Shown one piece after another: positions 572 to 49,737 of a stretch of DNA of 51,759 nt. This DNA comes from Escherichia phage vB_EcoD_Fulano1. Location: sequence record OL539459.1; one strand, written 5' to 3'. The stretch's first letter is position 1; each line of letters opens with the position of its first letter. The translations under genes were made by a program, and so were the position numbers. The notes under the pieces are model-generated. The model was not told the DNA's origin. It saw only the letters and a program-made list of their open reading frames with translations, and made no database searches.

Positions 572-2139
572 TGCTGATTTGGGAAGACTTAACAGCGGCG
601 CAAAAACGCGCCGTTAAGGAAATGAGCGAATATTCATTCGAAAAGATGATCCGCATTTGGTTTCAATTATTGCAAGGTCAGAAATTCTTAGGAAACTGGC
701 ATTTTAGCTACCTATGCAGCGAAGTTGAAAAAATCATCAAAGGAGAGTCACAGAATGTAATTTTCAACATAACGCCAGGCAGCGGTAAAACAGAGATATT
801 CTCGATCCATATGTCACCTTATGCGTCATTGAAAAGTAAGAAGGTGAGAAATCTCAATTTGTCGTTTAGTGATGGCCTTGTCCAGCAGAATAGCAACCGC
901 ATCAAAGAGATTATTGGTTCTCCAGAATGGCAGGAGCTATGGCCTGGAAAGCTGGCAAAGGCGAGCGCAAAGGATTTGATTGTAACCGATGGCGGCAAGG
1001 TTAAATTGCAAGTTAACTCGCGTTCTATCGGTGGTCAGGTTACTGGTCTGCGTGGAGGCTACATGGACGATGGCTTTACTGGTATGCTGGTTCTTGATGA
1101 TCCAGACAAGCCGGATGACATGCTTTCTAAGGTGAAGCGCGAAGCCGGACACATGCGCCTAAAGAACACGGTTCGATCGCGTCGAATGAAGGACACCACG
1201 CCAATTGTGATGGTTCAGCAACGCCTACACGTCAATGATTCAACATGGTTCATGACAAACGGAGGTATGGGCGGCATCCAGTTTAAGGTGGTTAGTATTC
1301 CGGCGCTCGTTACTAAGGAATATCGCGAAACTCTTCCTGATTGGTTAAGGCATGAGTTTGATCGCGATGTTTTGTCCAGCAAGCCAGTAATGATTGATGG
1401 AGTTGCTCATTATTCATTCTGGCCTGCTAAGGAAAGCGCGGAGGAATTACTTGCACTTCGCAATGCTGATCCGTACACGTTCGCTAGTCAGTATCAGCAA
1501 CAGCCTGTTGCGCTTGGCGGTAACGTGTTTAAAACAGAGTGGTTTCAGTATTACGGCAGCAGCGAGAAATGCACGCTACCAAAACCGGATCGCTTTGAAT
1601 ATACATTTATCACGGTTGATACCGCACAGAAAACAGGGGAGCTTAACGACTACTCCGTGATCTGTTATTGGGGGATGTATAAAGATCGCGTTTACTTCAT
1701 TGATGGTGTTCGCGGAAAATGGGAAGCACCAGACCTTGAGACTAATTTTGTTGCGTTCGTTAATCAGTGCTGGAAGCGCAATAAAGAATGCGGAACGTTG
1801 CGAAGGATTCATGTTGAAGATAAATCGTCTGGCACTGGTTTGATTCAGAGTGCAGCGAAAAAAATAATGATCAAGATCAATCCCGTTCAGCGTGATAAAG
1901 ACAAGGTTACTCGCGCAATGGACGCAGCGCCAGTAATGCGCGCCGGACGCGTAGCACTTCCAGAATCGCATCATATGCTGGCTGAGATACTTGCGGAGGT
2001 TGCGGCTTTTGCTTATGATGATTCAGCGCCACACGATGATATTGTGGATACTATAATTGACGCTGTAAACATTGAGCTTAACCTTGCTGATGATGCCGTT
2101 GGTCGAATGAAAAAATTGGCAGGTTTGCGGAACAAATAG
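571..2139 (+). CDS. terminase large subunit
   Basis: 522 aa; P-loop PGSGKT near N-terminus; acidic C-terminal half (DDSAPHDDIVDT) consistent with nuclease domain; first large gene of structural module. Confidence 0.8.
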   Translation: MLIWEDLTAAQKRAVKEMSEYSFEKMIRIWFQLLQGQKFLGNWHFSYLCSEVEKIIKGESQNVIFNITPGSGKTEIFSIHMSPYASLKSKKVRNLNLSFSDGLVQQNSNRIKEIIGSPEWQELWPGKLAKASAKDLIVTDGGKVKLQVNSRSIGGQVTGLRGGYMDDGFTGMLVLDDPDKPDDMLSKVKREAGHMRLKNTVRSRRMKDTTPIVMVQQRLHVNDSTWFMTNGGMGGIQFKVVSIPALVTKEYRETLPDWLRHEFDRDVLSSKPVMIDGVAHYSFWPAKESAEELLALRNADPYTFASQYQQQPVALGGNVFKTEWFQYYGSSEKCTLPKPDRFEYTFITVDTAQKTGELNDYSVICYWGMYKDRVYFIDGVRGKWEAPDLETNFVAFVNQCWKRNKECGTLRRIHVEDKSSGTGLIQSAAKKIMIKINPVQRDKDKVTRAMDAAPVMRAGRVALPESHHMLAEILAEVAAFAYDDSAPHDDIVDTIIDAVNIELNLADDAVGRMKKLAGLRNK

Positions 2140-2153
2140 CACGAATCGACAAA
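2136..2153 (+). promoter_or_regulatory. recurrent element, variant ATAGCACGAATCGACAAA
   Basis: overlaps TerL stop TAG; TATATAAT follows. Confidence 0.3.
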
Positions 2154-2168
2154 CCAATATATAATCAA

Positions 2169-2193
2169 AGGCTGGTGAATCCAGCCTTTTTTA
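2169..2193 (+). terminator. intrinsic terminator
   Basis: stem AGGCTGG/CCAGCCT, loop TGAAT, T-run. Confidence 0.6.
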
Positions 2194-2207
2194 TTGGAGG
2201 AAAGATA

Positions 2208-3488
2208 ATGAGTAAATCACGAATCGTTAAGGCTGATGGCTATAACGAGATCTTTAAAGGCGAGAATTGCAAATCGCGAGTAGAGCAACCATTCTACATG
2301 CAATCAATGCCATACAAGACACTTGCTGACTTTTACGAAAAAGACGGCCTGGCAAAAAGGGTTATTGACGTAGTACCAGAGGAAATGGTTTCCCCTGGCT
2401 TCACGGTTGACGGCGTGGCAGACGAGGCAGCATTCCGTTCTTTGTGGGATGAGAAGCGATTGAATGCAAAAATTATTGATGCGCTTTGCTGGTCGCGTTT
2501 GTTTGGCGGATCTGCAATCATTGCTCTTGTTCAGGATGGGCGGGCGCTCAAATCACCTGTAAAGCCTGGTGCCACGCTGGAAGACGTGCGCGTTTACGAT
2601 CGTTATCAGATTCGCGTTGAAGCGCGAGAAACAAATCCCCGCAAGGTTCGCTATGGTGAGCCAGTGCTTTACACTGTAACGCCAGGAGGAGACTTGCCGG
2701 AATACCAGGTACACTACACGCGCGTTTGCATTATCGACGGTGAGCGGATACCTAACGCAAAGCGACGCAGCAATGACGGCTGGGGTGAGTCAGTTCTTAA
2801 CAAGCGGCTTGTTGAGGCTATTGTTGATTATAACTATTGTGAAACATTAGCTACGCAATTATTGCGAAGAAAACAACAGGCAGTATGGAAGGCCAAAGGT
2901 CTTGCTGACTTGTGCGATGATGAGGAGGGTGTTAGCGCGGCACGCTTGAGACTTGCGCAGGTTGACGACGAGGGCGGCGTTGGCAAGGCCATTGGTATTG
3001 ATGCTGAGGATGAGGAATATGATGTTCTTAACTCTGACATTAGCGGCGTTGATTCTTTTCTGGAAAAGAAAATGGATCGCATCGTTTCCCTTTCAGGTAT
3101 TCATGAAATCATCCTGAAAAATAAAAACGTTGGCGGAGTTAGCGCAAGCCAAAACACGGCGCTTGAAACATTCTATAAACTTATTGAGCGAAAACGCGTC
3201 GAGGATTACAAGCCTATCCTTGAATTTCTATTGCCGTTCATCATTAGTGAGCAGGAATGGAGCATTGAGTTTTCACCTTTGAGCGTACCTAGCGATAAAG
3301 ATCAGGCTGAAATTCTGAATAAGAATATCGACTCAATCAGCAAGGCTATTGATGGTCAGTTCCTTGATGTTGAAGAAGCGCGCGACACGTTGCGAGCAAT
3401 CGCACCAAGCGTTAAACTAAAGGACACCAATAAAATCAAGCTGCCGGAGCCAACTGAGCCGGAGCCAGGCACACAGGGGAATGAGTAA
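2208..3488 (+). CDS. portal protein
   Basis: ORF track 2175..3488 trimmed to ATG 2208 behind GGAGG (2196-2200); ~430 aa gene directly after terminase, acidic C-terminus; position-based call. Confidence 0.65.
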   Translation: MSKSRIVKADGYNEIFKGENCKSRVEQPFYMQSMPYKTLADFYEKDGLAKRVIDVVPEEMVSPGFTVDGVADEAAFRSLWDEKRLNAKIIDALCWSRLFGGSAIIALVQDGRALKSPVKPGATLEDVRVYDRYQIRVEARETNPRKVRYGEPVLYTVTPGGDLPEYQVHYTRVCIIDGERIPNAKRRSNDGWGESVLNKRLVEAIVDYNYCETLATQLLRRKQQAVWKAKGLADLCDDEEGVSAARLRLAQVDDEGGVGKAIGIDAEDEEYDVLNSDISGVDSFLEKKMDRIVSLSGIHEIILKNKNVGGVSASQNTALETFYKLIERKRVEDYKPILEFLLPFIISEQEWSIEFSPLSVPSDKDQAEILNKNIDSISKAIDGQFLDVEEARDTLRAIAPSVKLKDTNKIKLPEPTEPEPGTQGNE

Positions 3489-6373: not shown

Positions 6374-6392
6374 CACAAAATTATGTTGCACG

Positions 6393-6410
6393 TTTAACAA
6401 AAAATGCTAT
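6393..6410 (-). promoter_or_regulatory. recurrent element (reverse orientation) TTTAACAAAAAATGCTAT
   Basis: upstream of major capsid gene but antisense to it. Confidence 0.3.
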
Positions 6411-9422: not shown

Positions 9423-10085
9423 ATGCATTTACCAAATGGATCGCAAATTTTCGTTGAGAGCAATCGCGGAAGCGAAATCCAAGCAACAGCAGTGTCAAAC
9501 GCCAAAGATCCTGTTTTCACTGTTGCATCTGGCGGCACTGCGTACAAGAAAGGTGATTATGTGATCATCACTGCGTCTTCTTGGGGTAAGCTGATTGATC
9601 GTGTTATGCGTGTAAAGGCTAACGGTGAAGAAACAAGCGTGACTCTTGAAGGTGTAGATACTACTGATCAGAACGTTTTCCCGACTGGCGGTACTGCATC
9701 TTTTGCCAAAATTGATGCATGGACTGAGATCCCTTGCGTTCAGGATTTGTCGCAGGACGGCGGCGAACAGCAATACTACACTTATCAGTGTTTGGCAGAC
9801 GATCAGGAACAGCAGTTACCTACCTATAAGAGCGCCGTTTCTCTTACCTACACTTTTGCGCACGAATACGATAACGCGATCTATCCGCTATTGCGTTCAG
9901 CAGATGAATCAGGCGCTGTAACGGCGCTTCGCATGTATGTACCAAAAGCAAAAGAGATGCGTTGCTGGGCTGGTGTCCTTTCGTTTAACGAAATCCCGCA
10001 GACCACAGTTAACGAAATGGAAACCGTTTCCCTGTCTGTATCCCTGAAAGGTCGATTCACCTTCCTACCTTCTCAAGTAGCATAA
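9423..10085 (+). CDS. major tail protein
   Basis: 220 aa, RBS AAGGAG, followed by strong terminator; position before chaperone/tape-measure genes. Confidence 0.65.
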   Translation: MHLPNGSQIFVESNRGSEIQATAVSNAKDPVFTVASGGTAYKKGDYVIITASSWGKLIDRVMRVKANGEETSVTLEGVDTTDQNVFPTGGTASFAKIDAWTEIPCVQDLSQDGGEQQYYTYQCLADDQEQQLPTYKSAVSLTYTFAHEYDNAIYPLLRSADESGAVTALRMYVPKAKEMRCWAGVLSFNEIPQTTVNEMETVSLSVSLKGRFTFLPSQVA

Positions 10086-10114: not shown

Positions 10115-10152
10115 TTACTGTACAATCATGCTACACGATTCATAATCAATTC

Positions 10153-10171
10153 TTTTAACAAAAAGTGCTAT
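10153..10171 (-). promoter_or_regulatory. recurrent element (reverse orientation) TTTTAACAAAAAGTGCTAT
   Basis: between major-tail terminator and chaperone RBS; antisense to flanking genes. Confidence 0.3.
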
Positions 10172-20917: not shown

Positions 20918-20973
20918 GTTGGTGTCTCCTTAGTTGTTGTTGGTTGCAACTATACACGATCTTGCGGTGGGCG

Positions 20974-20991
20974 TTTAGCAAAAAGTGCTAT
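20974..20991 (-). promoter_or_regulatory. recurrent element upstream of Cor-like gene
   Basis: on minus strand ATAGCACTTTTTGCTAAA then ~21 nt then TATAGT then RBS then ATG 20917. Confidence 0.45.
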
Positions 20992-22479: not shown

Positions 22480-22560
22480 ACAGCACAAATAGCTAAACAA
22501 ATGAAAAATGCGGTGTTATAATTCACCGCATAAGTTAACAACAAGCGTAAGGAAATAAAC

Positions 22561-28929: not shown

Positions 28930-28984
28930 ATACACCTCAAACAAAAAAGCCTGACAGATGATAACATCATGCCAGGCATTGTTT

Positions 28985-29458
28985 TTAGCAATTAGTGCTT
29001 TCAGGTTTATACAGGAATCCGCCAGGTTCATAATCTGACATTCTTACCACTCGCAACATTTCACGCTTATCACATCTCTTTGTGAGCGGTTTGCCATTGG
29101 AATCAAATCGCAGGTCTGGACGACAGAATGATGCGCGATAGCCTTGACATCCATATTTTTTGTAATCGTTATGCACCTTTTGAGCGCCAGCGGCTGAAAT
29201 CATACCACGAACGCGCCACTGATTTACAGTTTGCTGGCTAACGTTAAGACGTTTTGCCATTGCTGACACGCTTCCGTAATACTCAATAAGGATGTCAAGT
29301 CGCGCTTTTAGTCCGGCGCGCACTTCATCTTTTAAAACATAGTATCCCGTAGGGCGCTTGCGCTTCTTCTTGTCCTTGCCTCTTCGAGTTCCGTTATTGC
29401 CATTAATTGTGCGCTTGTCAATCTTTCCTGTTGATACTGCGATTCGTTGCTCTTTCAT
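28985..29458 (-). CDS. HTH DNA-binding protein (putative regulator)
   Basis: 157 aa; basic N-terminus RRGKDKKKRKRP; helix-turn-helix-like MAKRLNVSQQTVNQWR; divergent from helicase gene. Confidence 0.5.
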   Translation of the reverse strand: MKEQRIAVSTGKIDKRTINGNNGTRRGKDKKKRKRPTGYYVLKDEVRAGLKARLDILIEYYGSVSAMAKRLNVSQQTVNQWRVRGMISAAGAQKVHNDYKKYGCQGYRASFCRPDLRFDSNGKPLTKRCDKREMLRVVRMSDYEPGGFLYKPESTNC

Positions 29459-29471: not shown

Positions 29472-29518
29472 ATAGCATTTTTTGTTAAACGATGATTTAA
29501 TGATTGTGTATTATACAC
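29472..29518 (+). promoter_or_regulatory. helicase promoter region: recurrent element plus 13-bp palindrome GTGTATTATACAC
   Basis: ATAGCATTTTTTGTTAAAC 29472-29490; perfect palindrome 29506-29518 overlapping -10-like TATTAT. Confidence 0.45.
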
Positions 29519-31593: not shown

Positions 31594-31999
31594 TAAAGGC
31601 GATTATCTGGAGTTTTACGAAAGAGATCCGACAGATACACTAAAAGAAGAATCGCACCAGATAGGCGCGTTTCAATGGGTAACTTATGCTCATCCTGAAT
31701 TACTGGCATGGCATACGAAAAACGAGGGCGACAAGGGGATCGCCACCGCAATGATGGATCAGCAAGCTGGGCTTGTTAAGGGCGTAAGTGATTTTATCAT
31801 CCTGATTGGATTAAAAGGTCGTTACCCGTTCGCGGCAATTGAGATGAAGCGCGTCAATAAGTCCGGCAAGGGTAAGGCTTCACCAGTCAGCAAGGACCAA
31901 AAAGCCTTCTTGCGTCGTGTGCGTGAGCTTGGCGGATTCGCTGCCGTAACATACGGATATAAGCAATTCATGATCGCGGTAGAATACATGATGAAATAG
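31580..31999 (+). CDS. VRR-NUC domain nuclease
   Basis: 139 aa; PD-(D/E)xK-like core GVSDFIILIG ... AIEMK. Confidence 0.55.
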   Translation: MAMTDKGDYLEFYERDPTDTLKEESHQIGAFQWVTYAHPELLAWHTKNEGDKGIATAMMDQQAGLVKGVSDFIILIGLKGRYPFAAIEMKRVNKSGKGKASPVSKDQKAFLRRVRELGGFAAVTYGYKQFMIAVEYMMK

Positions 32000-32015
32000 C
32001 ACTTTTTGTTAAAAC
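31996..32015 (+). promoter_or_regulatory. recurrent element ATAGCACTTTTTGTTAAAAC
   Basis: overlaps stop TAG of 31580..31999; hairpin 32017-32034 then CATAAT 32034-32039. Confidence 0.45.
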
Positions 32016-32073
32016 AGGCGCGAAGGATTGCGCCATAATAACACCAGTTCAACAAGCAACAGGTAATTAAGAA

Positions 32074-32779: not shown

Positions 32780-33037
32780 ATGCAGAAAGAAAGAAGAGTT
32801 TTACTTAATGAAGATGGCGAATTTCTTTTGTATCGCGCTATGGTATGCGATGCAATTGATAAAAACCCTAACGTGAAAAAGATGATTGATTGCGATCCGT
32901 GGGAATTTTCAAGCGCATTAGATATGAGCTTTGAGGAGACAAAAAAACTCCCGCTTGAAAAATGGCACGAACAAATCAGAAATGACATGCAAGAATTTGT
33001 CGATTCTTGGAATTTTCAGAACGGAATGATCCACTAA
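32780..33037 (+). CDS. hypothetical protein
   Basis: ORF track 32432..33037 trimmed to ATG 32780 to remove overlap with dam. Confidence 0.4.
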   Translation: MQKERRVLLNEDGEFLLYRAMVCDAIDKNPNVKKMIDCDPWEFSSALDMSFEETKKLPLEKWHEQIRNDMQEFVDSWNFQNGMIH

Positions 33038-33056
33038 TAGCACTTTTTGTTAAAAC
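33037..33056 (+). promoter_or_regulatory. recurrent element ATAGCACTTTTTGTTAAAAC
   Basis: directly after stop TAA 33035-33037; hairpin 33057-33075 then CATAAT 33075-33080. Confidence 0.45.
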
Positions 33057-33112
33057 GCCCGGCCTTGTGTCGGGCATAATTATTTCATCAAAACGAACAA
33101 GAGGAAAACAAA

Positions 33113-39090: not shown

Positions 39091-39143
39091 TGATGATAAC
39101 TCCTTTTTTGATGCGGCAATAATACCGCACCAATGCTACCCGC

Positions 39144-39162
39144 ATTTAACAAAAAATGCTAT
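39144..39162 (-). promoter_or_regulatory. recurrent element ATAGCATTTTTTGTTAAAT
   Basis: overlaps stop TAG of HNH copy 3; hairpin with TATTAT loop; then RBS AAAAGGAG and ATG 39090. Confidence 0.45.
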
Positions 39163-40006: not shown

Positions 40007-40062
40007 CGTTTATTTCTCCTTTCGTTTCGGTGAAGTGATTATGCCAGGCTTTTACACCTGGC

Positions 40063-40081
40063 TTTTAACAAAAAGTGCTAT
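40063..40081 (-). promoter_or_regulatory. recurrent element ATAGCACTTTTTGTTAAAA
   Basis: overlaps stop TAG of methyltransferase gene; hairpin GCCAGG..CCTGGC then CATAAT then ATG 40006. Confidence 0.45.
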
Positions 40082-40788: not shown

Positions 40789-40797
40789 TTCATCACC

Positions 40798-41022
40798 TCA
40801 AAACGGAAAGCATCTAGGACAGTTCGGATCAAAATTGCAACCACAATCATTAACAATCATAGTTGGATCTGCAAATGCAGCGCCGCATTCATGGTCCATA
40901 TCCATTTCACCCAACGCATCATCAAGCGTCCTGATTTTATATGCCACTTCAAGCGCTGCCTCTTTATTTAATCCGGCATCTTCAGCCATTTGCAGGCGCT
41001 CAAAAAATCCGTCCTGACTCAT
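40798..41022 (-). CDS. hypothetical Cys-rich protein
   Basis: 74 aa, C-terminal CGCNFDPNCPRC. Confidence 0.35.
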   Translation of the reverse strand: MSQDGFFERLQMAEDAGLNKEAALEVAYKIRTLDDALGEMDMDHECGAAFADPTMIVNDCGCNFDPNCPRCFPF

Positions 41023-41024
41023 TT

Positions 41025-41129
41025 CATAAACTCCTTGACAACAACCAGAATAATAACAAGACCAGCAGTGACAACCAAAAGACCAGCAAGGCCAATCATC
41101 ACTCCAAATAAAATATCAAGAAATTTCAT
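41025..41129 (-). CDS. hypothetical single-TM peptide
   Basis: 34 aa ORF not in track; RBS AAGGTG. Confidence 0.25.
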
Positions 41130-41179
41130 CATTATTATCACCTTTATTTAAAGGGAGGCGAAAACCTCCCATTGATTAA

Positions 41180-41407
41180 TCAGACAGCCTTCCAGCTTTC
41201 AATAAACATGCTGTTTTCTTCCAGCAGTTTAATCAATTCTTCGCGCGTGTATTTGCGGATTTTACTACCTGGATGCGATCCAACAACAAACACACCTTTA
41301 CCGCTCGTGATTGTTAACTGGTTGATTCCACAAGATTTATCCATCTTAATGGCGACGCGGTGATGTGCATCAACAGTGTGCATGATGTTAGTGACTTTAG
41401 CTTTCAT
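41180..41407 (-). CDS. hypothetical protein
   Basis: ORF track 41180..41470 trimmed to ATG 41407 behind GAGGA. Confidence 0.35.
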   Translation of the reverse strand: MKAKVTNIMHTVDAHHRVAIKMDKSCGINQLTITSGKGVFVVGSHPGSKIRKYTREELIKLLEENSMFIESWKAV

Positions 41408-41462
41408 TATGCAATCCTCATTATATTTGGTGTGGTAACTATACCAAGTTTTCGAAATATTG

Positions 41463-41480
41463 TTTAACAATTCGTGCTAT
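41463..41480 (-). promoter_or_regulatory. recurrent element, GAATT variant ATAGCACGAATTGTTAAA
   Basis: ~21 nt upstream of TATAGT; TATAAT + GAGGA precede ATG 41407. Confidence 0.4.
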
Positions 41481-41581
41481 CAGTTGAAATAGCTATGGCG
41501 CTTTGCTCGCTTTCCATCTCCGCCATAATGATCATTTGCAACAGCTACCATCCAGGCATTATGGAATATTATTAGCTTCAT

Positions 41582-41860
41582 CTAATTAATACCCACCACG
41601 TTAAAACTTACAGCTTTTGTTCTAAACACATACGCTTCAACAGCATCACCAAATACACGAATTTTTCCATAGCCGTACTGCGCATTCATATTTCGCCAAA
41701 CCGTCCTGTTAGAGCAGAGCGCGCTACCAGTCTTAATAAGCGTATCCATCTCTTTTCTTAGATCGCGATAGTCCAGCCAGAATCTAAAGGCACGCTGTTT
41801 AATTCGCGCCGCCTTGATTTTTTCTCTTGCGCTATTGAAATCATTCTTTTCGTATGCCAT
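41582..41860 (-). CDS. hypothetical protein
   Basis: 92 aa ORF in leftward early block. Confidence 0.35.
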   Translation of the reverse strand: MAYEKNDFNSAREKIKAARIKQRAFRFWLDYRDLRKEMDTLIKTGSALCSNRTVWRNMNAQYGYGKIRVFGDAVEAYVFRTKAVSFNVVGIN

Positions 41861-42057
41861 TAAATGATCTCCATGTATGTTTCAAAGCCATTTAACTTGA
41901 ACAGGCCGTTTTCACATTTGCGCACGTTCCAAGTTAGCCCTGAGTGGTACGCCTCCATATCATCAAGGTCAATGGTGATTTCAGCACCTTTCTTAAAGAT
42001 TCCTTTCTCGTGAGTGGTGTCACGCTGTACAACTTTAACATCAACTTGATTTTCCAT
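41860..42057 (-). CDS. hypothetical protein
   Basis: 65 aa, RBS GAGGA, downstream of recurrent element. Confidence 0.35.
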   Translation of the reverse strand: MENQVDVKVVQRDTTHEKGIFKKGAEITIDLDDMEAYHSGLTWNVRKCENGLFKLNGFETYMEII

Positions 42058-42113
42058 TTTTAAATCCTCGTTCGTTGTCGATGCGCATAATATACCAATC
42101 AGAGGCGCATCGG

Positions 42114-42132
42114 TTTTAACAAAAAGTGCTAT
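42114..42132 (-). promoter_or_regulatory. recurrent element ATAGCACTTTTTGTTAAAA
   Basis: adjacent to stop of 42133..42399; hairpin 42079-42112 with TATATTAT loop; then ATG 42057. Confidence 0.45.
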
Positions 42133-42399
42133 TTAGTCCATGAATTCGATTTCGCGCTCGCCAGTTAACGGATCTACAAGCCAGAATCCGAGCGGCTCAC
42201 CGTAAACACCGCCATAGAATCCAAGCGCCGCCAGATCTTCACCGTTAACAAATACCAGATCACCGCTACGGCTTACGTGAGACACGTTAACGATAACCGG
42301 AAATGTGCGGTTTTTAAATGCAGGCCGCAGGGCGTAACACCCGTTATTGAGCAAACGTGCTTTGCGCTTAACTGGAATAGGTGCATTGATTCGCGCCAT
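42133..42399 (-). CDS. hypothetical protein
   Basis: 88 aa, stop overlaps recurrent element. Confidence 0.35.
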   Translation of the reverse strand: MARINAPIPVKRKARLLNNGCYALRPAFKNRTFPVIVNVSHVSRSGDLVFVNGEDLAALGFYGGVYGEPLGFWLVDPLTGEREIEFMD

Positions 42400-42412
42400 C
42401 TTTGTTTCTCCT

Positions 42413-42658
42413 TCATTGTTGATCGTGTTTAACGGCCATCAGAACATCACAGGACTCGTTAATAAATTTTGCCATGCGCTTATCATCACCAGCAGGGATT
42501 AGCGCGTTAAACTCGCGTTTGCTACTGAATACCGTCACTTTATGAAACGATGCGAACGGCATCGACGGGAACTCGACTGTTTGCGTCAAGATCCGCAATC
42601 CCATCTTTTTGGCCCTTACCTGGGCCTCAGCGAGTTCAAAATCCACTTCATTAATCAT
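42413..42658 (-). CDS. hypothetical protein
   Basis: 81 aa ORF. Confidence 0.35.
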   Translation of the reverse strand: MINEVDFELAEAQVRAKKMGLRILTQTVEFPSMPFASFHKVTVFSSKREFNALIPAGDDKRMAKFINESCDVLMAVKHDQQ

Positions 42659-42927
42659 TTCTTGATCTCCTCAGCAATAAACTTCAGGACTTTGCGCAAA
42701 AACACTTCATTATTGATGGTCGCTGGCAATTCCTCTTTCACTTCTTGCGGCAGGTAAACGTTGCCATGCCAGGTTAAGCAATCGTAGTTGATACGATAAG
42801 AGCAAAGCCACTCGCAATCGTTATCCGCTTCCCAAATGCAGAGTTGCAGAACATCACCGAAATCCTCAACAGTCAGATCCAGACCGTGACGCTTTGCAAA
42901 GTTGAAAGTGGTTTTGCTGATGTTCAT
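42655..42927 (-). CDS. hypothetical protein
   Basis: 90 aa ORF. Confidence 0.35.
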   Translation of the reverse strand: MNISKTTFNFAKRHGLDLTVEDFGDVLQLCIWEADNDCEWLCSYRINYDCLTWHGNVYLPQEVKEELPATINNEVFLRKVLKFIAEEIKK

Positions 42928-42975
42928 TGCTATCTCCTGATGGCTATCTCGTTTCGATGAGATAACTATACCAGG

Positions 42976-43212
42976 TTATTCCGATCGCGCTTTAACAAAA
43001 AGTGCTATTTGCTGACTGGTCATTATTCCATCTATTCCATTAATCAGGAATAACAGGAATAATTCATTCGCGATCACCTGGATTGTGAGACTTTGAGTTT
43101 GATCAATTTTAATCAGTTGATTAACTTTTTGTGTGGAGGGGATAGAGAAACGCGGCCCTCTTGCGTCCTTTCCAGCAATCCTGGCGCGCGCATCTGTTAT
43201 TTCTGTTCCCAA
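42976..43212 (-). CDS. questionable ORF (may be non-coding leader)
   Basis: 78 aa; contains dyad repeat 43022-43063 and recurrent element 42991-43008. Confidence 0.2.
   Translation of the reverse strand: MGTEITDARARIAGKDARGPRFSIPSTQKVNQLIKIDQTQSLTIQVIANELFLLFLINGIDGIMTSQQIALFVKARSE
42991..43008 (-). promoter_or_regulatory. recurrent element ATAGCACTTTTTGTTAAA
   Basis: ~70 nt upstream of ATG 42927; not at a stop codon here. Confidence 0.35.
43022..43063. repeat. dyad-symmetric element with ATTCC/GGAAT half-sites
   Basis: ATTATTCC (43022-43029), ATTCC (43034-43038), centre ATTAAT, GGAAT (43047-43051), GGAATAAT (43056-43063). Confidence 0.5.
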
Positions 43213-43549
43213 TGTTATCTCAAATAAGCCTCCGCACTTTTAGATAACAGAAACGGCGTTCATCAACAAAAAGAACAAAATAAAATTTATATATATACCC
43301 ATAAAATCAATAAGTTAGTTATATATGTATTTATATTTGTTATTTACTGTTATGCTTGTTCTGTGGGTATGTGGTGGGTGTTGATGATTCCTTCATTTAA
43401 CATTTGTACTTTTTATGCGGTTATATATATAGATTTTGCGGCATTATCGAGACAACCAGTGAACGAGATTGAACGAGCTTTAAAATCAATCACTTGCGCG
43501 CAATTTTGTTATCGCGTCAAAAAAAGATGTTATTAGAACGAAAAATCAG

Positions 43550-43578
43550 TTGACTACCTGGCTGTGAGTATTGATAAT
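43550..43578 (+). promoter_or_regulatory. sigma70-like promoter TTGACT-17-GATAAT for rightward early operon
   Basis: TTGACT 43550-43555, GATAAT 43573-43578, 33 nt before ATG 43611. Confidence 0.55.
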
Positions 43579-43610
43579 GCACGCAGACAAAACGAAAAGG
43601 GAGACAGCAC

Positions 43611-43910
43611 ATGACAAAAATGCTTGCAATAAACCGAAAACTTGAAGTGAAAGAGATGTCACAAGATGATATTGATGATTTGGCGCGCGGCATGACAACA
43701 GGTTACATGCGGAGAATTGTCAATCACTTGATTAACTCTGAACGAAATAAGGCCGTATACATCAGCATAAATCACGCTGGAGGGAATGCTGCATCAATGC
43801 GACAGATGATTAACAACGTGGCAAAAGAGTTAAATGTTGATGTTAAGACGTTTGTTGTTGATGGATTCCTGGGCCTGGTAATACTTGAAGTTAACGAAGC
43901 GTTTGCATAA
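43611..43910 (+). CDS. hypothetical early protein
   Basis: 99 aa, first gene behind TTGACT-17-GATAAT promoter, RBS AAGGGAG. Confidence 0.4.
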   Translation: MTKMLAINRKLEVKEMSQDDIDDLARGMTTGYMRRIVNHLINSERNKAVYISINHAGGNAASMRQMINNVAKELNVDVKTFVVDGFLGLVILEVNEAFA

Positions 43911-43921
43911 GGAGTAAGAGA

Positions 43922-44383
43922 ATGGAGCAAGAATTTATTAACCGCGCGGCATTTTGCGACACGTTGCGAGATATTGGAAGGGCTATCGGTAGCGGTGAGC
44001 GAGAAACCGTATTTATGCCTGAAATCTACCTGAGAAGTCGAGTTGAGGGGGGCGACGCAATTACAGCATCGTACATGCGCCAGGTGGTCAACCGTGTGCC
44101 AGAAGTAAAGCAAAAAGGCGTGATCAGCATTAAGCGAAAGGTGACTGATGAGGGTGATGGCTTTGTGTTTACGCTCACTGAAGCCAAAAGCAAGCCTCGC
44201 GTGCTGACTGGAGACGATATAGCGAAACTTGAAATCAAGTGGCGAGCAAAGTTTATTGCTCAACTTCTGAAAACCCAGCCGAGAATCAGCGACCTGGAAG
44301 GCGAGCGCCTGGAGGGTGCGGCAATCGCACTTGAGAGAATGAATGAAATGCTCAACGAGATGGTAAAGGTGGGGGATGAATAG
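43922..44383 (+). CDS. hypothetical protein
   Basis: 153 aa, RBS AAGGAG. Confidence 0.4.
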   Translation: MEQEFINRAAFCDTLRDIGRAIGSGERETVFMPEIYLRSRVEGGDAITASYMRQVVNRVPEVKQKGVISIKRKVTDEGDGFVFTLTEAKSKPRVLTGDDIAKLEIKWRAKFIAQLLKTQPRISDLEGERLEGAAIALERMNEMLNEMVKVGDE

Positions 44384-44649
44384 TGAATAAGGCATTAATT
44401 GGAGTTTTGATTGCAATTGCTACCCTGACCGGATGCGAAAAGGCATCTGAATCAACGGTAGTCGTAGGCGTGGAGTCAGATTTTAAAGTCGGTCGCCTGT
44501 TTACTGTTGATGGATGCACTGCGTACCGATTCTATGATAACGGTCACGCGATCTATTACACCAACTGCAAGGGCACGACTAGCTGGGAAGTGTCGAAAAG
44601 CAACGGCAAGGTAACGACAACAGAACATATGACAGTGGAGACAAAATAG
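44383..44649 (+). CDS. lipoprotein (signal peptide near-identical to Cor-like gene)
   Basis: GTG start overlapping previous stop; MNKALIGVLIAIATLTGC lipobox. Confidence 0.5.
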   Translation: MNKALIGVLIAIATLTGCEKASESTVVVGVESDFKVGRLFTVDGCTAYRFYDNGHAIYYTNCKGTTSWEVSKSNGKVTTTEHMTVETK

Positions 44650-44665
44650 CACTTTTTGTTAAAAC
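44646..44665 (+). promoter_or_regulatory. recurrent element ATAGCACTTTTTGTTAAAAC
   Basis: overlaps stop TAG of lipoprotein gene; CATAAT 44684-44689. Confidence 0.45.
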
Positions 44666-44744
44666 TCAAAAACGATAACCAGGCATAATAAATCACATAG
44701 GGCGGCACGGCGTCGCCCAGTTAAACCAATCAGGAGAAAGCACC

Positions 44745-45638
44745 ATGTTAAAACTTGCTGACATTAAATTCCCGATCACTTTCGAATCTCGTGGCGTTGG
44801 TCATTACATTTTTACAGATGAGAAAACATGCCATAACGTTTGGTTGCACAGCGATAAGCCAAGCCCATCAAAAATGGAGATTCAGCACTTCATTGATGCG
44901 CATAATCAGCACTACAACTCAATCCGTGACTACGGCTACGCAATGCCAGGCTACACATGCTTGCACTACAAGCCATATAAGGGCCAGGTGTTACCAGTGC
45001 GCTCACCGGAACGCGCAGAGATTCCGATGGTCAATATGAAAACCTGCGACTACAAAAAGCTGTGGTGCTTAAGTCTGGACAATATCAAGTATCCGATCAC
45101 GTTCCACACGACTGGTAAGTCAACGATTCGCTACACATCGCGCGACAATGGCGTTTATAGCGATGGTACGAAATCAGAGTTGAAAGTTGATTTCTTTGTC
45201 AACGGTCACAACAAATTCAATCCGCACAACGAAGAGGATAAAGTGTACTACGTGGAAGATATTACAAAACACTTGTTTGGCGAAACTCCATTCGGCGGCG
45301 GGAAGACGTCAATTCAAAAAATCATTGGCGAGGAGATCCACAAGGCAGCCGCTGAAATGAAAGCACCAGGAGGCTGGCGTATTGATAAGAGCGCAATTTC
45401 CTATCAAGAAATCGTAACGCAGGGCGCTATTGAAGACATGCCAGTTGCCGCCACGCTAAAAGGCGTTCAGCTTGATGACGGCGTGTGGTATGAATTAACG
45501 GCTAAGCCAAAGACGATCGAGATTCATGATGATGTTGTTATTCTTCTGCTTCATTACGGTAGCGCAAAAAACCGTGCCGTTGCGGGTGAGATTAGCATCA
45601 AGCGCGGAACGATGGTTAAGTGGAAGGTTAAGGTGTAA
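44745..45638 (+). CDS. hypothetical protein with internal tandem duplication
   Basis: 297 aa; LADIKFPITFESRG and LDNIKYPITFHTTG repeat units. Confidence 0.45.
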   Translation: MLKLADIKFPITFESRGVGHYIFTDEKTCHNVWLHSDKPSPSKMEIQHFIDAHNQHYNSIRDYGYAMPGYTCLHYKPYKGQVLPVRSPERAEIPMVNMKTCDYKKLWCLSLDNIKYPITFHTTGKSTIRYTSRDNGVYSDGTKSELKVDFFVNGHNKFNPHNEEDKVYYVEDITKHLFGETPFGGGKTSIQKIIGEEIHKAAAEMKAPGGWRIDKSAISYQEIVTQGAIEDMPVAATLKGVQLDDGVWYELTAKPKTIEIHDDVVILLLHYGSAKNRAVAGEISIKRGTMVKWKVKV

Positions 45639-45658
45639 ATAGCACGAATTGTTAAAAC
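45639..45658 (+). promoter_or_regulatory. recurrent element, GAATT variant ATAGCACGAATTGTTAAAAC
   Basis: follows stop TAA; TATAAT 45676-45681 in loop of GGCC stem. Confidence 0.45.
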
Positions 45659-45711
45659 TCAAATGTGGGGCCAGGTATAATGGCCTCACTTTCAACGAAG
45701 GAGATAAAACG

Positions 45712-45916
45712 ATGTACATTATCAAGAAGATGAAATGCGTTTCCGTTAATTATTGTTGTGCTGGAATGTTCAAGCCTAGCGAAATCTATACGGCGCAAAA
45801 ACTGAATCTTTTTACGTGAGCAATAGTAAGGGGCATCGCATGTTCCTGAACGGCGGCGAAGGCACTAAGGTTATGGCACACGCTATGGTAATGGCTGAAT
45901 TTGAGGAGGTGAAATA
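45712..45916 (+). pseudogene. frameshifted paralog of 45917..46150
   Basis: ORF 45712..45819 (35 aa) and -1 frame 45780..45916 together align to the downstream protein; frames meet at A5 run 45797-45801. Confidence 0.35.
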
Positions 45917-46150
45917 ATGATCATCGAAAACAACTTTCTTTGCGTTAAGAGCAATCGACCATTCTTCACGCCTGGCAAGGTGTACCAGGGCAAGAAGGAC
46001 ACAAGAGATGGTCACTCTTATCATGTTCACTGCAACAACGGATACAAGTTTTACCTCAACGGTAATAATGGAACTGAGATTGTTGCGTTTGAAAACGTAA
46101 TTGCCGAGTTCGAGCAGATTACAGACGCGGAATTTGAGGAAGTGAAATAA
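45917..46150 (+). CDS. hypothetical protein
   Basis: 77 aa, RBS GAGGAGG. Confidence 0.4.
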   Translation: MIIENNFLCVKSNRPFFTPGKVYQGKKDTRDGHSYHVHCNNGYKFYLNGNNGTEIVAFENVIAEFEQITDAEFEEVK

Positions 46151-46152
46151 TC

Positions 46153-46362
46153 ATGGATCAGAACAAAACAGCAAAATATAAATTCACTGACGACTACGGA
46201 GACACTATCGACGTTTATCAGCGTGGGAATCAGATCTTTATCGATGGCACTTTCGAATATGGCCGGATGCCAGACTTTCGGGGAATACTTTCGGCAGATA
46301 GCGCGCGACGCATGGCGAACGTGTTAAATAAACTGGCGGCAAAGATTGAGGCGATGCAATGA
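46153..46362 (+). CDS. hypothetical protein
   Basis: 69 aa ORF. Confidence 0.4.
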   Translation: MDQNKTAKYKFTDDYGDTIDVYQRGNQIFIDGTFEYGRMPDFRGILSADSARRMANVLNKLAAKIEAMQ

Positions 46363-46898
46363 AAAAATACACTTTCGAACTATGGGGCAATAAGTACGAA
46401 TTTACGACAAGCAAGCCTATTGTTGTGTGCGATCTCGACGGCACGCTATCGGACGGATCGCATCGTTTGCATTTGCTGCCAAATGAAAACTTGCACCTTA
46501 CGGAATCGTGGCGCGAGTTTAACAGGGCCGCCGCCGGAGATTCACCGATTAAAAGCACTATCGCGGTTATTAACGGTTTATGGGTGTCGGGATTTGCCAT
46601 CGTCATCTTGACCGGACGCAGCGACGAGGTTCGCTATGAAACCTGCAAATGGTTGAATGAGAACGGCGTGAAGTTTGACGAAATCATCATGCGCCGCCAG
46701 GAGGACAACCGAAAGGATACTGTTATTAAAGAAGAAGCCTTGCGCGCTATTGGCCTGGACAATATTGTTTGCGCCTTTGACGATTCGCCGAGCGTGGTTA
46801 AGCACTTCCGCAGCTTGGGGATCACAACCTATCAGGTCACGGAATACGACAAGCCACACGCTCACATACAATCTCACGGCGTGGATGAATTGAAATGA
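46359..46898 (+). CDS. HAD-family phosphatase (polynucleotide 3'-phosphatase-like)
   Basis: motif I VVCDLDGTL, motif II ILTGRS, motif IV FDDSPS. Confidence 0.6.
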   Translation: MKKYTFELWGNKYEFTTSKPIVVCDLDGTLSDGSHRLHLLPNENLHLTESWREFNRAAAGDSPIKSTIAVINGLWVSGFAIVILTGRSDEVRYETCKWLNENGVKFDEIIMRRQEDNRKDTVIKEEALRAIGLDNIVCAFDDSPSVVKHFRSLGITTYQVTEYDKPHAHIQSHGVDELK

Positions 46899-47056
46899 CC
46901 TGGTTACTTTTAATCTTTGTCACAAGTTACAATTCCGCCGCTATTGAATCGCAAGAGTTCCACGGCGAATCAAGATGCCAGGAAGCACGAAAACAAGTTG
47001 TTCTCCACATGTCAGATAGTGGGAAAGATGTAACAGCGCTATGCGTTCGTAAATAG
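46895..47056 (+). CDS. hypothetical small protein
   Basis: 53 aa ORF not in track, ATGA overlap with phosphatase stop, hydrophobic N-terminus. Confidence 0.25.
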   Translation: MTWLLLIFVTSYNSAAIESQEFHGESRCQEARKQVVLHMSDSGKDVTALCVRK

Positions 47057-47072
47057 CACTTTTTGCAAAAAC
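47053..47072 (+). promoter_or_regulatory. recurrent element ATAGCACTTTTTGCAAAAAC
   Basis: overlaps stop TAG of small ORF; TATAGT 47091-47096 in hairpin loop. Confidence 0.4.
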
Positions 47073-47127
47073 ACATTATCGGGCTTGCGGTATAGTAAGC
47101 CCATCGACAACAAGCGAGGATTAAATC

Positions 47128-47391
47128 ATGGTTAATAAAGTTGAGTTTTTCAAAGCGGTAGACAAGATTGACGGCGCGCCAAGTTTCTTTGCTATCCATT
47201 CCATTGACGGCGAAGACGTTGCATACAACGTGATTAGTCGAGACGGTATATCAAAACTTAGTGACCTGGTGGGTTATATTGTGGCAAACGGGAAATGTGC
47301 ATGGCCCGATTCGCCACGAGAGCCGCGCCGCCGCGACATGCAAAATCCAGTCCTGCTTTACACGCTGGTAATTGAAGGAGTCAACAAATGA
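47128..47391 (+). CDS. hypothetical protein
   Basis: 87 aa ORF behind recurrent element. Confidence 0.35.
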   Translation: MVNKVEFFKAVDKIDGAPSFFAIHSIDGEDVAYNVISRDGISKLSDLVGYIVANGKCAWPDSPREPRRRDMQNPVLLYTLVIEGVNK

Positions 47392-47588
47392 TTTGGTTAC
47401 TTGTATTTTTGGTGGTTTTCTTTTATATTTCAGGCTTATTCATCTTCCGTGCGCTGGTGAAAACATGCGATTGCACGGATAAAGATCAGCCTCTTGTTCT
47501 GATGTTCTGGTTTGTGTGGTTTTGGGTTGTGTGGTTTTGGGTTGCGCTTTATCAGATTGTACGGGATAAAAGCGGATTCAAGTGGTGA
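47388..47588 (+). CDS. small membrane protein (Trp/Phe-rich)
   Basis: 66 aa, two hydrophobic segments, FWFVWFWVVWFWV from DNA direct repeat 47508-47540. Confidence 0.4.
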   Translation: MIWLLVFLVVFFYISGLFIFRALVKTCDCTDKDQPLVLMFWFVWFWVVWFWVALYQIVRDKSGFKW

Positions 47589-47782
47589 TTCTTACTATAG
47601 CGCATTCACGCAGTGCGCTATGTTGAGATAACAACATGAGATCATGAAGATGCGAAACTTCGAAAAAATCGTATCCAAAAAGAAGCGATACAGCTACCAC
47701 GAGCACCAAGAGATGAATCAACGCTATCGCAATAAGCGCCAGCGCAAAGGTAAACATTCCGGTAAACATGGAGAAAATCAAT

Positions 47783-48373
47783 ATGAAACGAGACATTATC
47801 ATCCTTAACGGACCGCCAGGAGTTGGCAAAGATACGCTTGCCGCATACTTAACGGGCCATCGTTACGCAGCGGTTAAAGCGTCGTTTAAACAGCCGATGT
47901 TTGATATTGCATTCTCCATGCTTGGCGTTTACAGATATGACGAGTTCATTGATCTGTATAACGACCGCGAGCAGAAAGAAAAGCCTCAAGCAATCTTGCA
48001 AGGCAAGTCTCCGCGACAATTCATGATTTGGATTAGTGAAGAAGTCATGAAGCCAGCTTTTGGCGAGCAATATTTTGGGAATCGCATGGTTGAGCAGGTA
48101 CACGAGATGTACAGAGATTTAGCTGTTGTAATTAGTGATGGAGGATTCCCTGAAGAAATCAAGCCGCTCGTTAAGGCAGGCCATGAAGTTCACATTTGCC
48201 GACTGCATCGCGAAGGATTCACGTTTGATGGCGATTCGCGAAACTATATTGACCTGAGCGGATACCATTACCGAGTCAAGCATTACGACTTCACAATGAC
48301 TGATGGCGAGCCAGAAAAGACTGTTGATGAGATCATCAAAACGGTGCAGTGGAAACACACAAAGATTAAATAG
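47783..48373 (+). CDS. P-loop kinase (nucleotide/polynucleotide kinase-like)
   Basis: Walker A ILNGPPGVGKDT; ORF track 47768 trimmed to ATG 47783 behind GGAG. Confidence 0.55.
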   Translation: MKRDIIILNGPPGVGKDTLAAYLTGHRYAAVKASFKQPMFDIAFSMLGVYRYDEFIDLYNDREQKEKPQAILQGKSPRQFMIWISEEVMKPAFGEQYFGNRMVEQVHEMYRDLAVVISDGGFPEEIKPLVKAGHEVHICRLHREGFTFDGDSRNYIDLSGYHYRVKHYDFTMTDGEPEKTVDEIIKTVQWKHTKIK

Positions 48374-48389
48374 CACGAATTGCTAAAAG
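48370..48389 (+). promoter_or_regulatory. recurrent element, GAATT variant ATAGCACGAATTGCTAAAAG
   Basis: overlaps kinase stop TAG; hairpin then TATAAT. Confidence 0.45.
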
Positions 48390-48443
48390 CGGGGCGCAAT
48401 GCCTCGCTATAATGCAAACACCAATCAACGAGAGGAAACAATC

Positions 48444-48848
48444 ATGGTAGAGTTAAACGACATTCGCGTAGGCACAAAATTTCGCGTAACCTGGGTATAT
48501 GATGAGCGATGCGGCATTCGCAAAGGTGAGATTGTAACGGCTTCCGATCGTTATATCGGATCGTTAAAAGAGTTTAACCGACCACGCATCAAGAATGGCT
48601 ATATCATTACTCGACGACTTGGCTTTGATCATTATTGCGTAGTGGCAACTCAAGGCGTTTTGATTGAGCTTAAGCGAATCAGCGATCATCGCGGCTGCCA
48701 TGTTAAGACAATGAAAACACCATTTCAGCGAGCGCGATACGATGCGCGACGTATGCGCCGACTTGCGCGCAATGCGATCAAGTTCAAAAAGCCTGGTAAT
48801 GATTTTTACGTCATGTACAAGGGGATTGCGCGAAATGCTGGGAAATAA
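48444..48848 (+). CDS. hypothetical protein
   Basis: trimmed to ATG 48444 behind GAGAGGA. Confidence 0.4.
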   Translation: MVELNDIRVGTKFRVTWVYDERCGIRKGEIVTASDRYIGSLKEFNRPRIKNGYIITRRLGFDHYCVVATQGVLIELKRISDHRGCHVKTMKTPFQRARYDARRMRRLARNAIKFKKPGNDFYVMYKGIARNAGK

Positions 48849-48947
48849 CAACAACGCAACAAATCAAAAGCCGCCATTTGATTTTCATGAAATCATGATT
48901 GTGTTATTCTTGATTCTCTTAGTTATTTATTCAGTGAGGGCCGCACT

Positions 48948-49211
48948 ATGGTTTTTAACGCACTAAAACGAATCTTTAAACCTGAATACCGGATCGTTGC
49001 TTGCACAGAATGCAAGATTTATTACCTGCAACGCCGCCGCGTTATTAGTGGCGATTGGGAATATCTGACGGATGATGCTTTCGGCTTTTGGGCTATGGAG
49101 TTCAATAGCTACAGCGAAGCGCGTGAGTACGCTAAAAAGTTGCACAAGTTCAGACCTTACAAGCTGCGTTTGCTGGTTGTCAAAAAATGCGATGTGTTGG
49201 ATCACGAATGA
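48948..49211 (+). CDS. hypothetical protein
   Basis: 87 aa ORF. Confidence 0.35.
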   Translation: MVFNALKRIFKPEYRIVACTECKIYYLQRRRVISGDWEYLTDDAFGFWAMEFNSYSEAREYAKKLHKFRPYKLRLLVVKKCDVLDHE

Positions 49212-49387
49212 AAAGAGTAATTATCATTTTTATTGCCATTATCGCTGGTTGCTACCTGGCTTATAATTATAGCGGCATTGTTGAGTCAATCGGCAGGTTG
49301 ATTATCTTCATGGCTGGCGGGTATGCTGGCTATTATGATGGATTCGAAAACGGAAAGCGTTACATGCTTACCGGAAAAAAGAAGTAA
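49208..49387 (+). CDS. small membrane protein / possible lipoprotein
   Basis: ATGA overlap at 49208; MKRVIIIFIAIIAGC resembles signal peptide with lipobox. Confidence 0.35.
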   Translation: MKRVIIIFIAIIAGCYLAYNYSGIVESIGRLIIFMAGGYAGYYDGFENGKRYMLTGKKK

Positions 49388-49430
49388 TGTTAACCGCGCC
49401 GCTTCGGTGGCGCTAAAAGGAGGAAACAAA

Positions 49431-49718
49431 ATGGCTAAAAGCAATCGTAAAATGTTGATTAACGCATTCGAAAAGGCGGCGCTTGAGCGTGGTTGGAATG
49501 ACTCATTTCACACAGCAAACTGTATCCGCCGTTACGGATTCAAGAATTGCCGATCCTGGGCGCGTCAAATGGCTTCATGGTATGATCTTGATGCGCATTA
49601 CCTTGATATGGATTGCGCCCTGGTTGAAATGATTGAGCAGGCAGCATTAGAGGATCGACCATTAACGCAATCTGATTTTGACGATTTTGTGCGCGATGAA
49701 ATCTATTACATGAGCTAA
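49431..49718 (+). CDS. hypothetical protein
   Basis: trimmed to ATG 49431 behind AAAGGAGG. Confidence 0.4.
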   Translation: MAKSNRKMLINAFEKAALERGWNDSFHTANCIRRYGFKNCRSWARQMASWYDLDAHYLDMDCALVEMIEQAALEDRPLTQSDFDDFVRDEIYYMS

Positions 49719-49737
49719 TAGCACTTTTTGTTAAAAC
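49718..49737 (+). promoter_or_regulatory. recurrent element ATAGCACTTTTTGTTAAAAC
   Basis: directly after stop TAA of 49431..49718. Confidence 0.4.

Follow-up and report, generated by a model that had tools for sequence, protein, structure and literature searches.

T1-like phages transcribe their genes without a polymerase or sigma factor of their own and have almost no canonical promoters. In the genome of Escherichia phage vB_EcoD_Fulano1 (OL539459.1), a 20-bp element, ATAGCAC-N5-GYTAAAAC, is present in 19 copies (~0.01 expected by chance), and 16 of the copies belong to complete modules that also contain a TATAAT-like hexamer. We analysed this DNA over its full length of 51,759 nucleotides (hereafter the window) together with related genomes. 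The repeated element is real. Judging from sequence and geometry, we give a probability of roughly 0.55 to the reading that the modules are class II, activator-dependent sigma70 promoters, which are probably read by the host regulators Rob, MarA or SoxS.

The window is the whole genome of a T1-like phage (Drexlerviridae, Tempevirinae, Hanrivervirus). A 6-kb stretch of it is 97% identical to Escherichia phage grams, from whose annotation gene names such as cor are taken, and 95% identical to Shigella phage pSf-1. The terminase genes come first and are followed by the structural genes on the plus strand up to ~20.8 kb; beyond these lie the genes for recombination, replication and lysis, as well as small early genes in two blocks. 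For comparison across genera, we use a set of four genomes, namely the window, T1, Rtp, and Klebsiella phage TAH8.

The repeat itself is already known. The re-annotation of phage TLS (German, Misra, Kropinski; Phage 2024) describes a 21-nt direct repeat with the consensus aaATAGCACnnnTTGnTAAAA at 21 sites, which runs along the direction of transcription ~76 nt ahead of start codons, is divided by its central bases into an A, a T and a G group, and is also reported in T1, Rtp, and Rogue1 (PMC11447400). The same authors find only three sigma70-like intergenic promoters, assign no function to the repeat, and suggest stoperators, enhancer sites or UP elements (PMC11447400). The element of the window corresponds to the TLS repeat in its consensus aaATAGCACnnnTTGnTAAAA, its intergenic position, its co-orientation with the downstream gene and its subclasses, and it is likewise present in T1, Rtp, and TAH8. 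The TLS paper mentions neither a fixed 18-nt link to a -10 hexamer nor a match to the marbox, the binding site of MarA, SoxS, and Rob. The marbox reading is new as far as could be found.

Results

The element is coupled to a -10 hexamer

The phage consensus of the 20-mer is ATAGCACTTTTTGTTAAAAC. The T-class 20-mer has 14 matches in the window when up to three mismatches are allowed (0.01 expected), and the GAATT variant has 8 (0.02 expected); neither count is reached by any shuffle. A preliminary description of the window listed 17 copies in two sequence classes and named shuffled sequences as a test of chance. All 17 are present at the given positions within 1-2 nt, similar copy numbers are never obtained from shuffled sequences, and the two classes are borne out, although there are more than two of them (CTTTTTG, CGAATTG, CAAATAG, and CTAATTG). 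Two further copies, which are degenerate and have the full promoter geometry, had been missed: 22480-22499(+), ACAGCACAAATAGCTAAACA, and 29001-28982(-), AAAGCACTAATTGCTAAAAA.

The 16 complete modules share one layout. The 20-mer is followed by a spacer of 17-18 nt, a TATAAT-like hexamer, a conserved A, a leader, a Shine-Dalgarno sequence, and an ATG. The spacer between the end of the 20-mer and the hexamer measures 18 nt in 11 modules and 17 nt in the other 5, which places the hexamer 21-22 nt after TTGTTA, a coupling even tighter than the 21-23 nt claimed before. Fifteen of the 16 hexamers agree with TATAAT at five or six of the six positions, and GG usually stands just before the hexamer. 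The conserved A, seven nt after the hexamer, is the predicted +1; examples are 32046, 33087, 45688, and 48420 on the plus strand and 40031 and 42082 on the minus strand. The leader is 22-49 nt long, usually 22-32 nt; the distance from the start of the motif to the start codon is mostly 73-81 nt in the window. The leader often reads CATCGAAACGA; this semi-conserved sequence follows the conserved A (7-20 nt past the hexamer; for example 33087-33100 and 42082-42069) and is common to the four genera and to the copy in Klebsiella phage KP15 described below.

All 16 modules face the same way as the next gene, which is an early or DNA-metabolism gene, in accordance with the co-orientation noted before. 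Likewise, the overlap with upstream stop codons, previously given for at least ten copies, applies to 11 of the 16: the upstream open reading frame (ORF) ends at a TAG within ATAG or at a TAA 0-1 nt before the motif.

A canonical -35 hexamer is absent from most modules. In a scan of 38000-51759 for -35/-10 pairs, only two of the ten modules in that region pass a 4-of-6 test for the -35. In the same region, canonical sigma70 -35/-10 matches are depleted as a whole (15 found, 29.1 +/- 5.9 in shuffles).

Could RNA polymerase use such promoters alone? The alpha subunit would then make a displaced, UP-like contact with the T- and A-tracts, and TTGYTA would serve as a surrogate -35, aided by a G at -14. 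The UP element is among the suggestions of the TLS authors (PMC11447400), and the order of T-tract, three bases, and A-tract does resemble a UP-element core. TTGYTA agrees with TTGACA at four of six positions, and GG precedes most hexamers. However, TTGYTA lies 21-22 nt from the hexamer, which is outside the range tolerated by sigma70, and the invariant, G/C-specific ATAGCAC has no role in such a promoter. In addition, the GAATT, TAATT, and AAATA classes have no T-tract. The preliminary description had offered a UP element at about -57 to -38 as one of two possibilities. When the hexamer is set at -12 to -7, the 20-mer falls at about -50 to -31, overlapping the -35 and ~8 bp downstream of the UP-element position. 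We reject the UP reading because the position is wrong and because the contact of the alpha C-terminal domain with A/T-tracts leaves the invariant G/C-specific bases unexplained. Activator-independent promoters of this kind are accordingly improbable.

The fixed spacing to the -10, the conserved A, the co-orientation, the intergenic placement, and the conservation across genera (see below) together indicate that the elements are probably parts of promoters, as proposed before.

The element resembles the marbox

A monomer of MarA, SoxS or Rob binds an asymmetric site that has a defined direction (PMC6900184, PMC12052159). The consensus of this site, the marbox, is AYnGCACnnWnnRYYAAAYn, AYNGCACNNWNNRYYAAAYN (PMC2064960); its 15-bp core is given as GCAHWWWWTGYYAAA (PMC6900184) or as gcannwwntgnnaaa (PMC12052159). 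Class II promoters have their marbox facing forward and overlapping the -35, with a centre that falls between -36 and -55 (PMC12052159, PMC6900184).

A scan of the window with the marbox consensus, allowing at most one mismatch, yields 19 sites (1.21 expected). The phage consensus fits every specified position of the marbox except Y19, which is A in the phage. The T-class core, GCACTTTTTGTTAAA, agrees with GCAHWWWWTGYYAAA at 15 of 15 positions and fits every specified position of gcannwwntgnnaaa; the GAATT class agrees with GCAHWWWWTGYYAAA at 14 of 15.

The element has a non-palindromic layout of two boxes one helical turn apart, an A-box (ATAGCAC) and a B-box (TTGYTAAA). Across the sites of the four genera, the information content is ~2 bits at each position of ATAGCAC, lower in the B-box, and lowest in the N5 centre. 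For binding by Rob, mutations in the A-box are reported to cause a 7- to 100-fold loss and mutations in the B-box a 2- to 4-fold loss (PMC8279559). The invariant ATAGCAC, the looser B-box, and the free centre thus match the reported dominance of the A-box.

The geometry also corresponds to that of class II promoters. In all 16 modules, the putative marbox is forward, with AYnGCAC...AAA reading toward the hexamer and the downstream gene. The implied centre of the core is at about -40, relative to a +1 that is predicted and unmapped, compared with -41 in micF, -41 in rfaY, and -39 in fumC; it is within the range of -36 to -55.

The closest host counterpart is micF, whose promoter DNA has been crystallised with Rob (1D5Y). 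Read from E. coli K-12, the micF promoter consists of ACAGCACTGAATGTCAAAAC, an 18-nt gap, and TAGAAT, and its annotated +1 is eight nt past the hexamer. The micF marbox shares 15 of 20 positions with the phage consensus, the AAAAC end among them. Like the element in the phage modules, it faces forward and is separated from the -10 by 18 nt, and in both the centre of the core is 28 nt ahead of the first hexamer base. In contrast to the ~16 near-identical copies at most early and middle genes of the phage, micF is a single host promoter with added input from OmpR. The marRAB marbox, ATGCCACGTTTTGCTAAATC, crystallised with MarA (1BL0), is identical to one TAH8 site at 17 of 20 positions, but it is a backward box that lies upstream (class I) and does not overlap the -35.

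The likeness is also found in the opposite direction. We built a scoring matrix from 62 phage sites alone and used 200 shuffled 1-kb sequences as control. Each of the two crystallised marboxes is the top match in its own region, with scores of 11.6 for micF and 16.9 for mar; the control maximum is 10.0. With the same matrix, the fumC marbox is the top match in its region at a score of only 2.0, which is not significant, and the inaA marbox is not recovered from its region.

The module is conserved across genera and beyond the family

A scan with the marbox consensus yields 21 sites in T1, 16 in Rtp, and 14 in TAH8, where ~1 is expected in each. The four genera together contain 62 full modules, and the spacer is exactly 18 nt in 53 of them. 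A larger collection, drawn from IMG/VR loci and the fetched genomes, comprises 604 unique copies of the motif; a strong hexamer is present in 431 of them and stands at exactly 18 nt in 377.

Conservation at orthologous sites, which the preliminary description made a test of its proposal, extends across genera. In the window, T1, and TAH8, the exonuclease VIII gene is followed by an A-class copy. The helicase gene has a GCAT variant in front of it in the window, TAH8, and Rtp; T1 has GCAC there. The junction of the regulator and primase genes also has a copy, again in the window, T1, and TAH8. Neither chance occurrence nor lack of conservation, both named before as grounds for refutation, applies, and the observation therefore stands. 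Site-specific classes and A-box variants are kept at such junctions (window 22480 and 29472; T1 31443 and 36444; TAH8 33089 and 36064; Rtp 35294), which suggests tuned promoter strengths or timing.

The same module, with hairpin and leader, is present in the T4-like Straboviridae phages KP15, KP27, RB16, CfP1, and EC-F1. In Klebsiella phage KP15, it is located at 10042-10085 (-) and annotated as 'putative middle promoter (MEME)'; a second, degenerate copy is 350 bp upstream. The neighbouring genes of the KP15 module have no homologues in the Drexlerviridae genomes examined. The presence of the module in unrelated T4-like phages, beside genes foreign to the Drexlerviridae, fits a reader supplied by the host.

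The KP15 annotation prompted us to consider a MotA box. In T4 middle promoters, where sigma is appropriated by MotA and AsiA, a conserved box likewise replaces the -35 while the sigma70 -10 is kept. For the MotA box, TGCTT, the distance to the -10 is 11-13 bp, whereas TGYTAAA ends 20-21 nt from the hexamer; in addition, ATAGCAC has no counterpart in the MotA box. The MotA-box reading is rejected on the spacing.

Candidate readers encoded by the phage

The phage does not seem to bring a MarA-like protein of its own. A six-frame search with hidden Markov models, together with phmmer searches with MarA, SoxS, and Rob, finds no AraC-like ORF; the best AraC-type match has E = 0.03 and is on a non-coding strand. 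Pfam detects no AraC domain in 20 phage proteins, and no T1-like phage is among the best 30 matches listed in a tblastn search of MarA against 50,697 phage records. On these negatives, a phage-encoded MarA-like protein is rejected.

Two phage ORFs had been named as candidate helix-turn-helix (HTH) proteins for binding the element. The first, 28985-29458, does encode an HTH protein, with a single HTH of the Cro/YdaS type, and it is the only recognisable HTH regulator. The second, 33620-34753 (+), does not: its annotation in close relatives is phosphoesterase or DNA repair exonuclease. The earlier proposal of regulator binding sites is supported in part: the motif matches the two-box sites of host MarA, SoxS, and Rob, and the phage proteins named with it are not the best candidates.

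A phage protein, either the Cro-like regulator or an unannotated early protein, might nevertheless read the 20-mer in these promoters, in which case the likeness to the marbox would be convergence or coincidence. Phage factors that read phage-specific promoter sets are common, as exemplified by T4 MotA and T7 RNA polymerase. The motif is more uniform than host marboxes and invariant at positions where the marbox consensus is free, a conserved HTH regulator is present in every genus examined, and most of the small early proteins have no family assignment. However, a single Cro-type HTH is hard to reconcile with an asymmetric 20-bp site made of two unlike boxes one helical turn apart. The recognition helix of the Cro-like regulator differs between genera while the motif is unchanged, and the motif, unlike the small early proteins, is conserved across genera. 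The module is also present in T4-like phages with no Drexlerviridae genes nearby. Moreover, coincidence would have to cover the match to micF in sequence, orientation, and spacing together. We therefore regard a phage-encoded reader as unlikely.

Since an AraC-family gene is missing from the phage, a host protein most likely acts as the reader. The Enterobacterales hosts of T1-like phages carry MarA/SoxS/Rob regulators. Every true relative found infects Enterobacterales, so the relatives offer no natural negative control. Vibrio phage 1.076.O was tried as a non-enteric control and is of no use as such: it has only the terminase in common and does not belong to the Drexlerviridae.

Hairpins surround the -10 hexamer

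Almost every module shows dyad symmetry between the 20-mer and the leader, with a mean folding z of -2.05, compared with -0.02 for random segments (p = 6e-15). The arms of the hairpins differ from site to site and stay complementary (GGGGCC..GGCCTC, GGGCTT..AAGCCC, GATGCGC..GCGCATC; for example 45659-45695, 47073-47110, and 42056-42112), and the -10 hexamer is often in the loop. The T1 annotators marked several equivalent hairpins as rho-independent terminators. At the junction of the regulator and primase genes, 28930-28981 (-), a terminator-like hairpin, GCCTGGCA...TGTCAGGC, with TATCAT in its loop, is followed by TTTTTT. With the hairpin and then the T-run, the promoter at this junction appears to be embedded in a terminator. 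The same layout is found at T1 35995(-) and TAH8 35653(-).

Such hairpins allow for a negative or RNA-level signal in place of a promoter, either a stoperator-like roadblock or, with the adjacent hairpin, a signal for termination or processing where upstream genes end. Upstream stop codons adjoin the motif or overlap it, almost every copy has a hairpin behind it, several of these hairpins were called terminators in T1, and the stoperator analogy was raised by the TLS authors (PMC11447400). Against this, a TATAAT-like hexamer coupled strictly at 17-18 nt and a conserved A at +1 are features of promoters, not of terminators. Most of the hairpins have no U-run, no Rfam family is matched in the window, and the hairpin sequences vary while the 20-mer does not. 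Stoperators of the mycobacteriophage L5 type are asymmetric sites at which the repressor of a temperate phage blocks elongation. The present phage is virulent, neither a repressor nor an integrase is annotated in its close relatives, and its sites carry their own -10 at a fixed distance. Given the promoter geometry, a purely negative or RNA-level role is unlikely. Because the hairpin sequences vary while the 20-mer is constant, the hairpins are better taken as separate signals, and they look like signals that act on transcripts arriving from upstream.

Distribution of the copies in the window

The 16 modules and the three remaining copies are listed in Table 1.

Table 1 Copies of the 20-bp element in the window. 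Predicted target genes are given with the position of the start codon; aa, amino acids.
Class	20-mer	Coordinates	Strand	Spacer (nt)	Hexamer	Gene predicted to be driven, or context
T-class module	ATAGCACTTTTTGCTAAACG	20949..20991	-	17	TATAGT	cor (superinfection exclusion), ATG 20917
A-class module	ACAGCACAAATAGCTAAACA	22480..22522	+	17	TATAAT	92-aa ORF, then erf
TAATT-class module	AAAGCACTAATTGCTAAAAA	28958..29001	-	18	TATCAT	primase gene, ATG 28929
GCAT-variant module	ATAGCATTTTTTGTTAAACG	29472..29514	+	17	TATTAT	helicase gene, ATG 29548
T-class module	exact consensus	31996..32039	+	18	CATAAT	dam methyltransferase, ATG 32074
T-class module	exact consensus	33037..33080	+	18	CATAAT	59-aa ORF, ATG 33113
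GCAT-variant module		39119..39162	-	18	TATTAT	527-aa DNA helicase gene, ATG 39090
T-class module		40038..40081	-	18	CATAAT	127-aa ORF, ATG 40006
GAATT-class module		41438..41480	-	17	TATAGT	75-aa ORF, ATG 41407
T-class module	exact consensus	42089..42132	-	18	TATATT	65-aa ORF, ATG 42057
T-class module		42965..43008	-	18	TATAGT	90-aa ORF, ATG 42927
T-class module	exact consensus	44646..44689	+	18	CATAAT	297-aa ORF, ATG 44745
GAATT-class module		45639..45681	+	17	TATAAT	small ORF, ATG 45712
T-class module	GCAAAAAC B-box variant	47053..47096	+	18	TATAGT	87-aa ORF, ATG 47128
GAATT-class module		48370..48413	+	18	TATAAT	134-aa ORF, ATG 48444
T-class module	exact consensus	49718..49761	+	18	TAAAGT	70-aa ORF, ATG 49794
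Antisense copy	ATAGCACTTTTTGTTAAAAG	10128..10171 (20-mer 10152-10171)	-	18	TAGCAT	antisense to tail genes; counterpart T1 18850(-)
Antisense copy		6391..6410	-		weak hexamer only	upstream of major capsid gene; counterpart T1 15086(-)
Degenerate remnant	ATAGCACGAATCGACAAACC	2136..2155	+		none at 17-18 nt	after large terminase gene, then terminator hairpin

The module at 22480 begins directly after the stop codon of exonuclease VIII, and its A-class counterparts are T1 31443 and TAH8 33089. The module at 28958..29001 overlaps the 3' end of the Cro-like regulator gene. The TAG in the motif of the module at 31996 is the stop codon of the VRR-NUC gene, and the TAG in that of the module at 39119..39162 is the stop codon of an HNH endonuclease ORF. 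This ORF, which ends on the TAG of the motif at 39162, is one of three paralogous ORFs with HNH_3 and AP2 domains (36173-36646, 37029-37502, and 39159-39659, all on the minus strand); they look like homing endonucleases and are located on either side of the gene for the 527-aa helicase.

The copy at 2136 had been counted among those coupled to a hexamer, but it is degenerate, a remnant that lacks a hexamer at the proper distance; in Rtp, the equivalent junction carries a full module. For the two copies on the strand antisense to structural genes, a hexamer had been described as lacking. This is only partly right: the copy at 10171(-) is followed by TAGCAT at 18 nt, and that at 6410(-) by a weak hexamer only. 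Both have positional counterparts in T1 and are therefore conserved and not accidental. The copy at 10171(-) faces a bidirectional terminator hairpin only ~25 nt from its predicted start. At the tail-gene junction of Rtp, a sense-strand module (16303+) is present instead of the antisense copy.

Discussion

In the mechanism that we propose, the 20-mer would be a marbox bound by a monomer of an AraC-family activator of the MarA/SoxS/Rob type. Facing forward, the marbox would occupy about -50 to -31 and take the place of the -35 hexamer. Once bound, the activator would make contact with RNA polymerase, and the polymerase would recognise the TATAAT-like hexamer 17-18 nt downstream and start transcription at the conserved A seven nt past the hexamer. 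The short leader would then bring the ribosome-binding site of an early, replication or recombination gene. The activator itself would most likely be a host protein. Rob is the sole member of the MarA/SoxS/Rob group that is made constitutively; MarA and SoxS, and RamA in Klebsiella, may add input under antibiotic, bile or oxidative stress. The transcription start point, the binding by any protein, and the identity of the bound protein are the parts of this mechanism that we infer.

Several observations weigh against a marbox read by these host regulators. Most of the Rob protein is reported to be sequestered and inactive in unstressed cells (PMC2787020). MarA and SoxS are scarce without stress, and the firing of ~16 essential promoters in ordinary laboratory infections is hard to explain. 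The phage motif is far more uniform than host marboxes, even at the free positions A1, T2, A3, and C20, so the reader could be more demanding than MarA, SoxS or Rob. Position 19 is A where the marbox consensus has Y, though micF also has A. Many phage proteins have no detectable family, and a DNA-binding protein of the phage that escapes recognition is possible. In addition, no literature linking T1-like phages to the marbox, Rob, MarA or SoxS was found in the library searched, which is incomplete.

A broader statement can be made tentatively: on the strength of the sequence comparisons, a virulent enterobacterial phage family that includes T1 may have linked its early and middle promoters, for the most part, to the mar/sox/rob stress regulon of the host. 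If so, Rob, MarA, SoxS or RamA would be required for phage gene expression or would enhance it. Cells exposed to bile, antibiotics or oxidative stress, and drug-resistant clinical strains with MarA- or RamA-overproducing mutations, would be better hosts, and the phage would do poorly on a rob marA soxS mutant. Few coliphages and Klebsiella phages are isolated as commonly as the T1-like phages, which are also used in phage therapy collections. Even with a phage factor as the reader of the site, the element would still define the main promoter set of the phage. If the modules are marbox promoters, the development of these phages would be linked to the regulators of intrinsic antibiotic resistance, which predicts interactions between phages and antibiotics and a new route to phage resistance.

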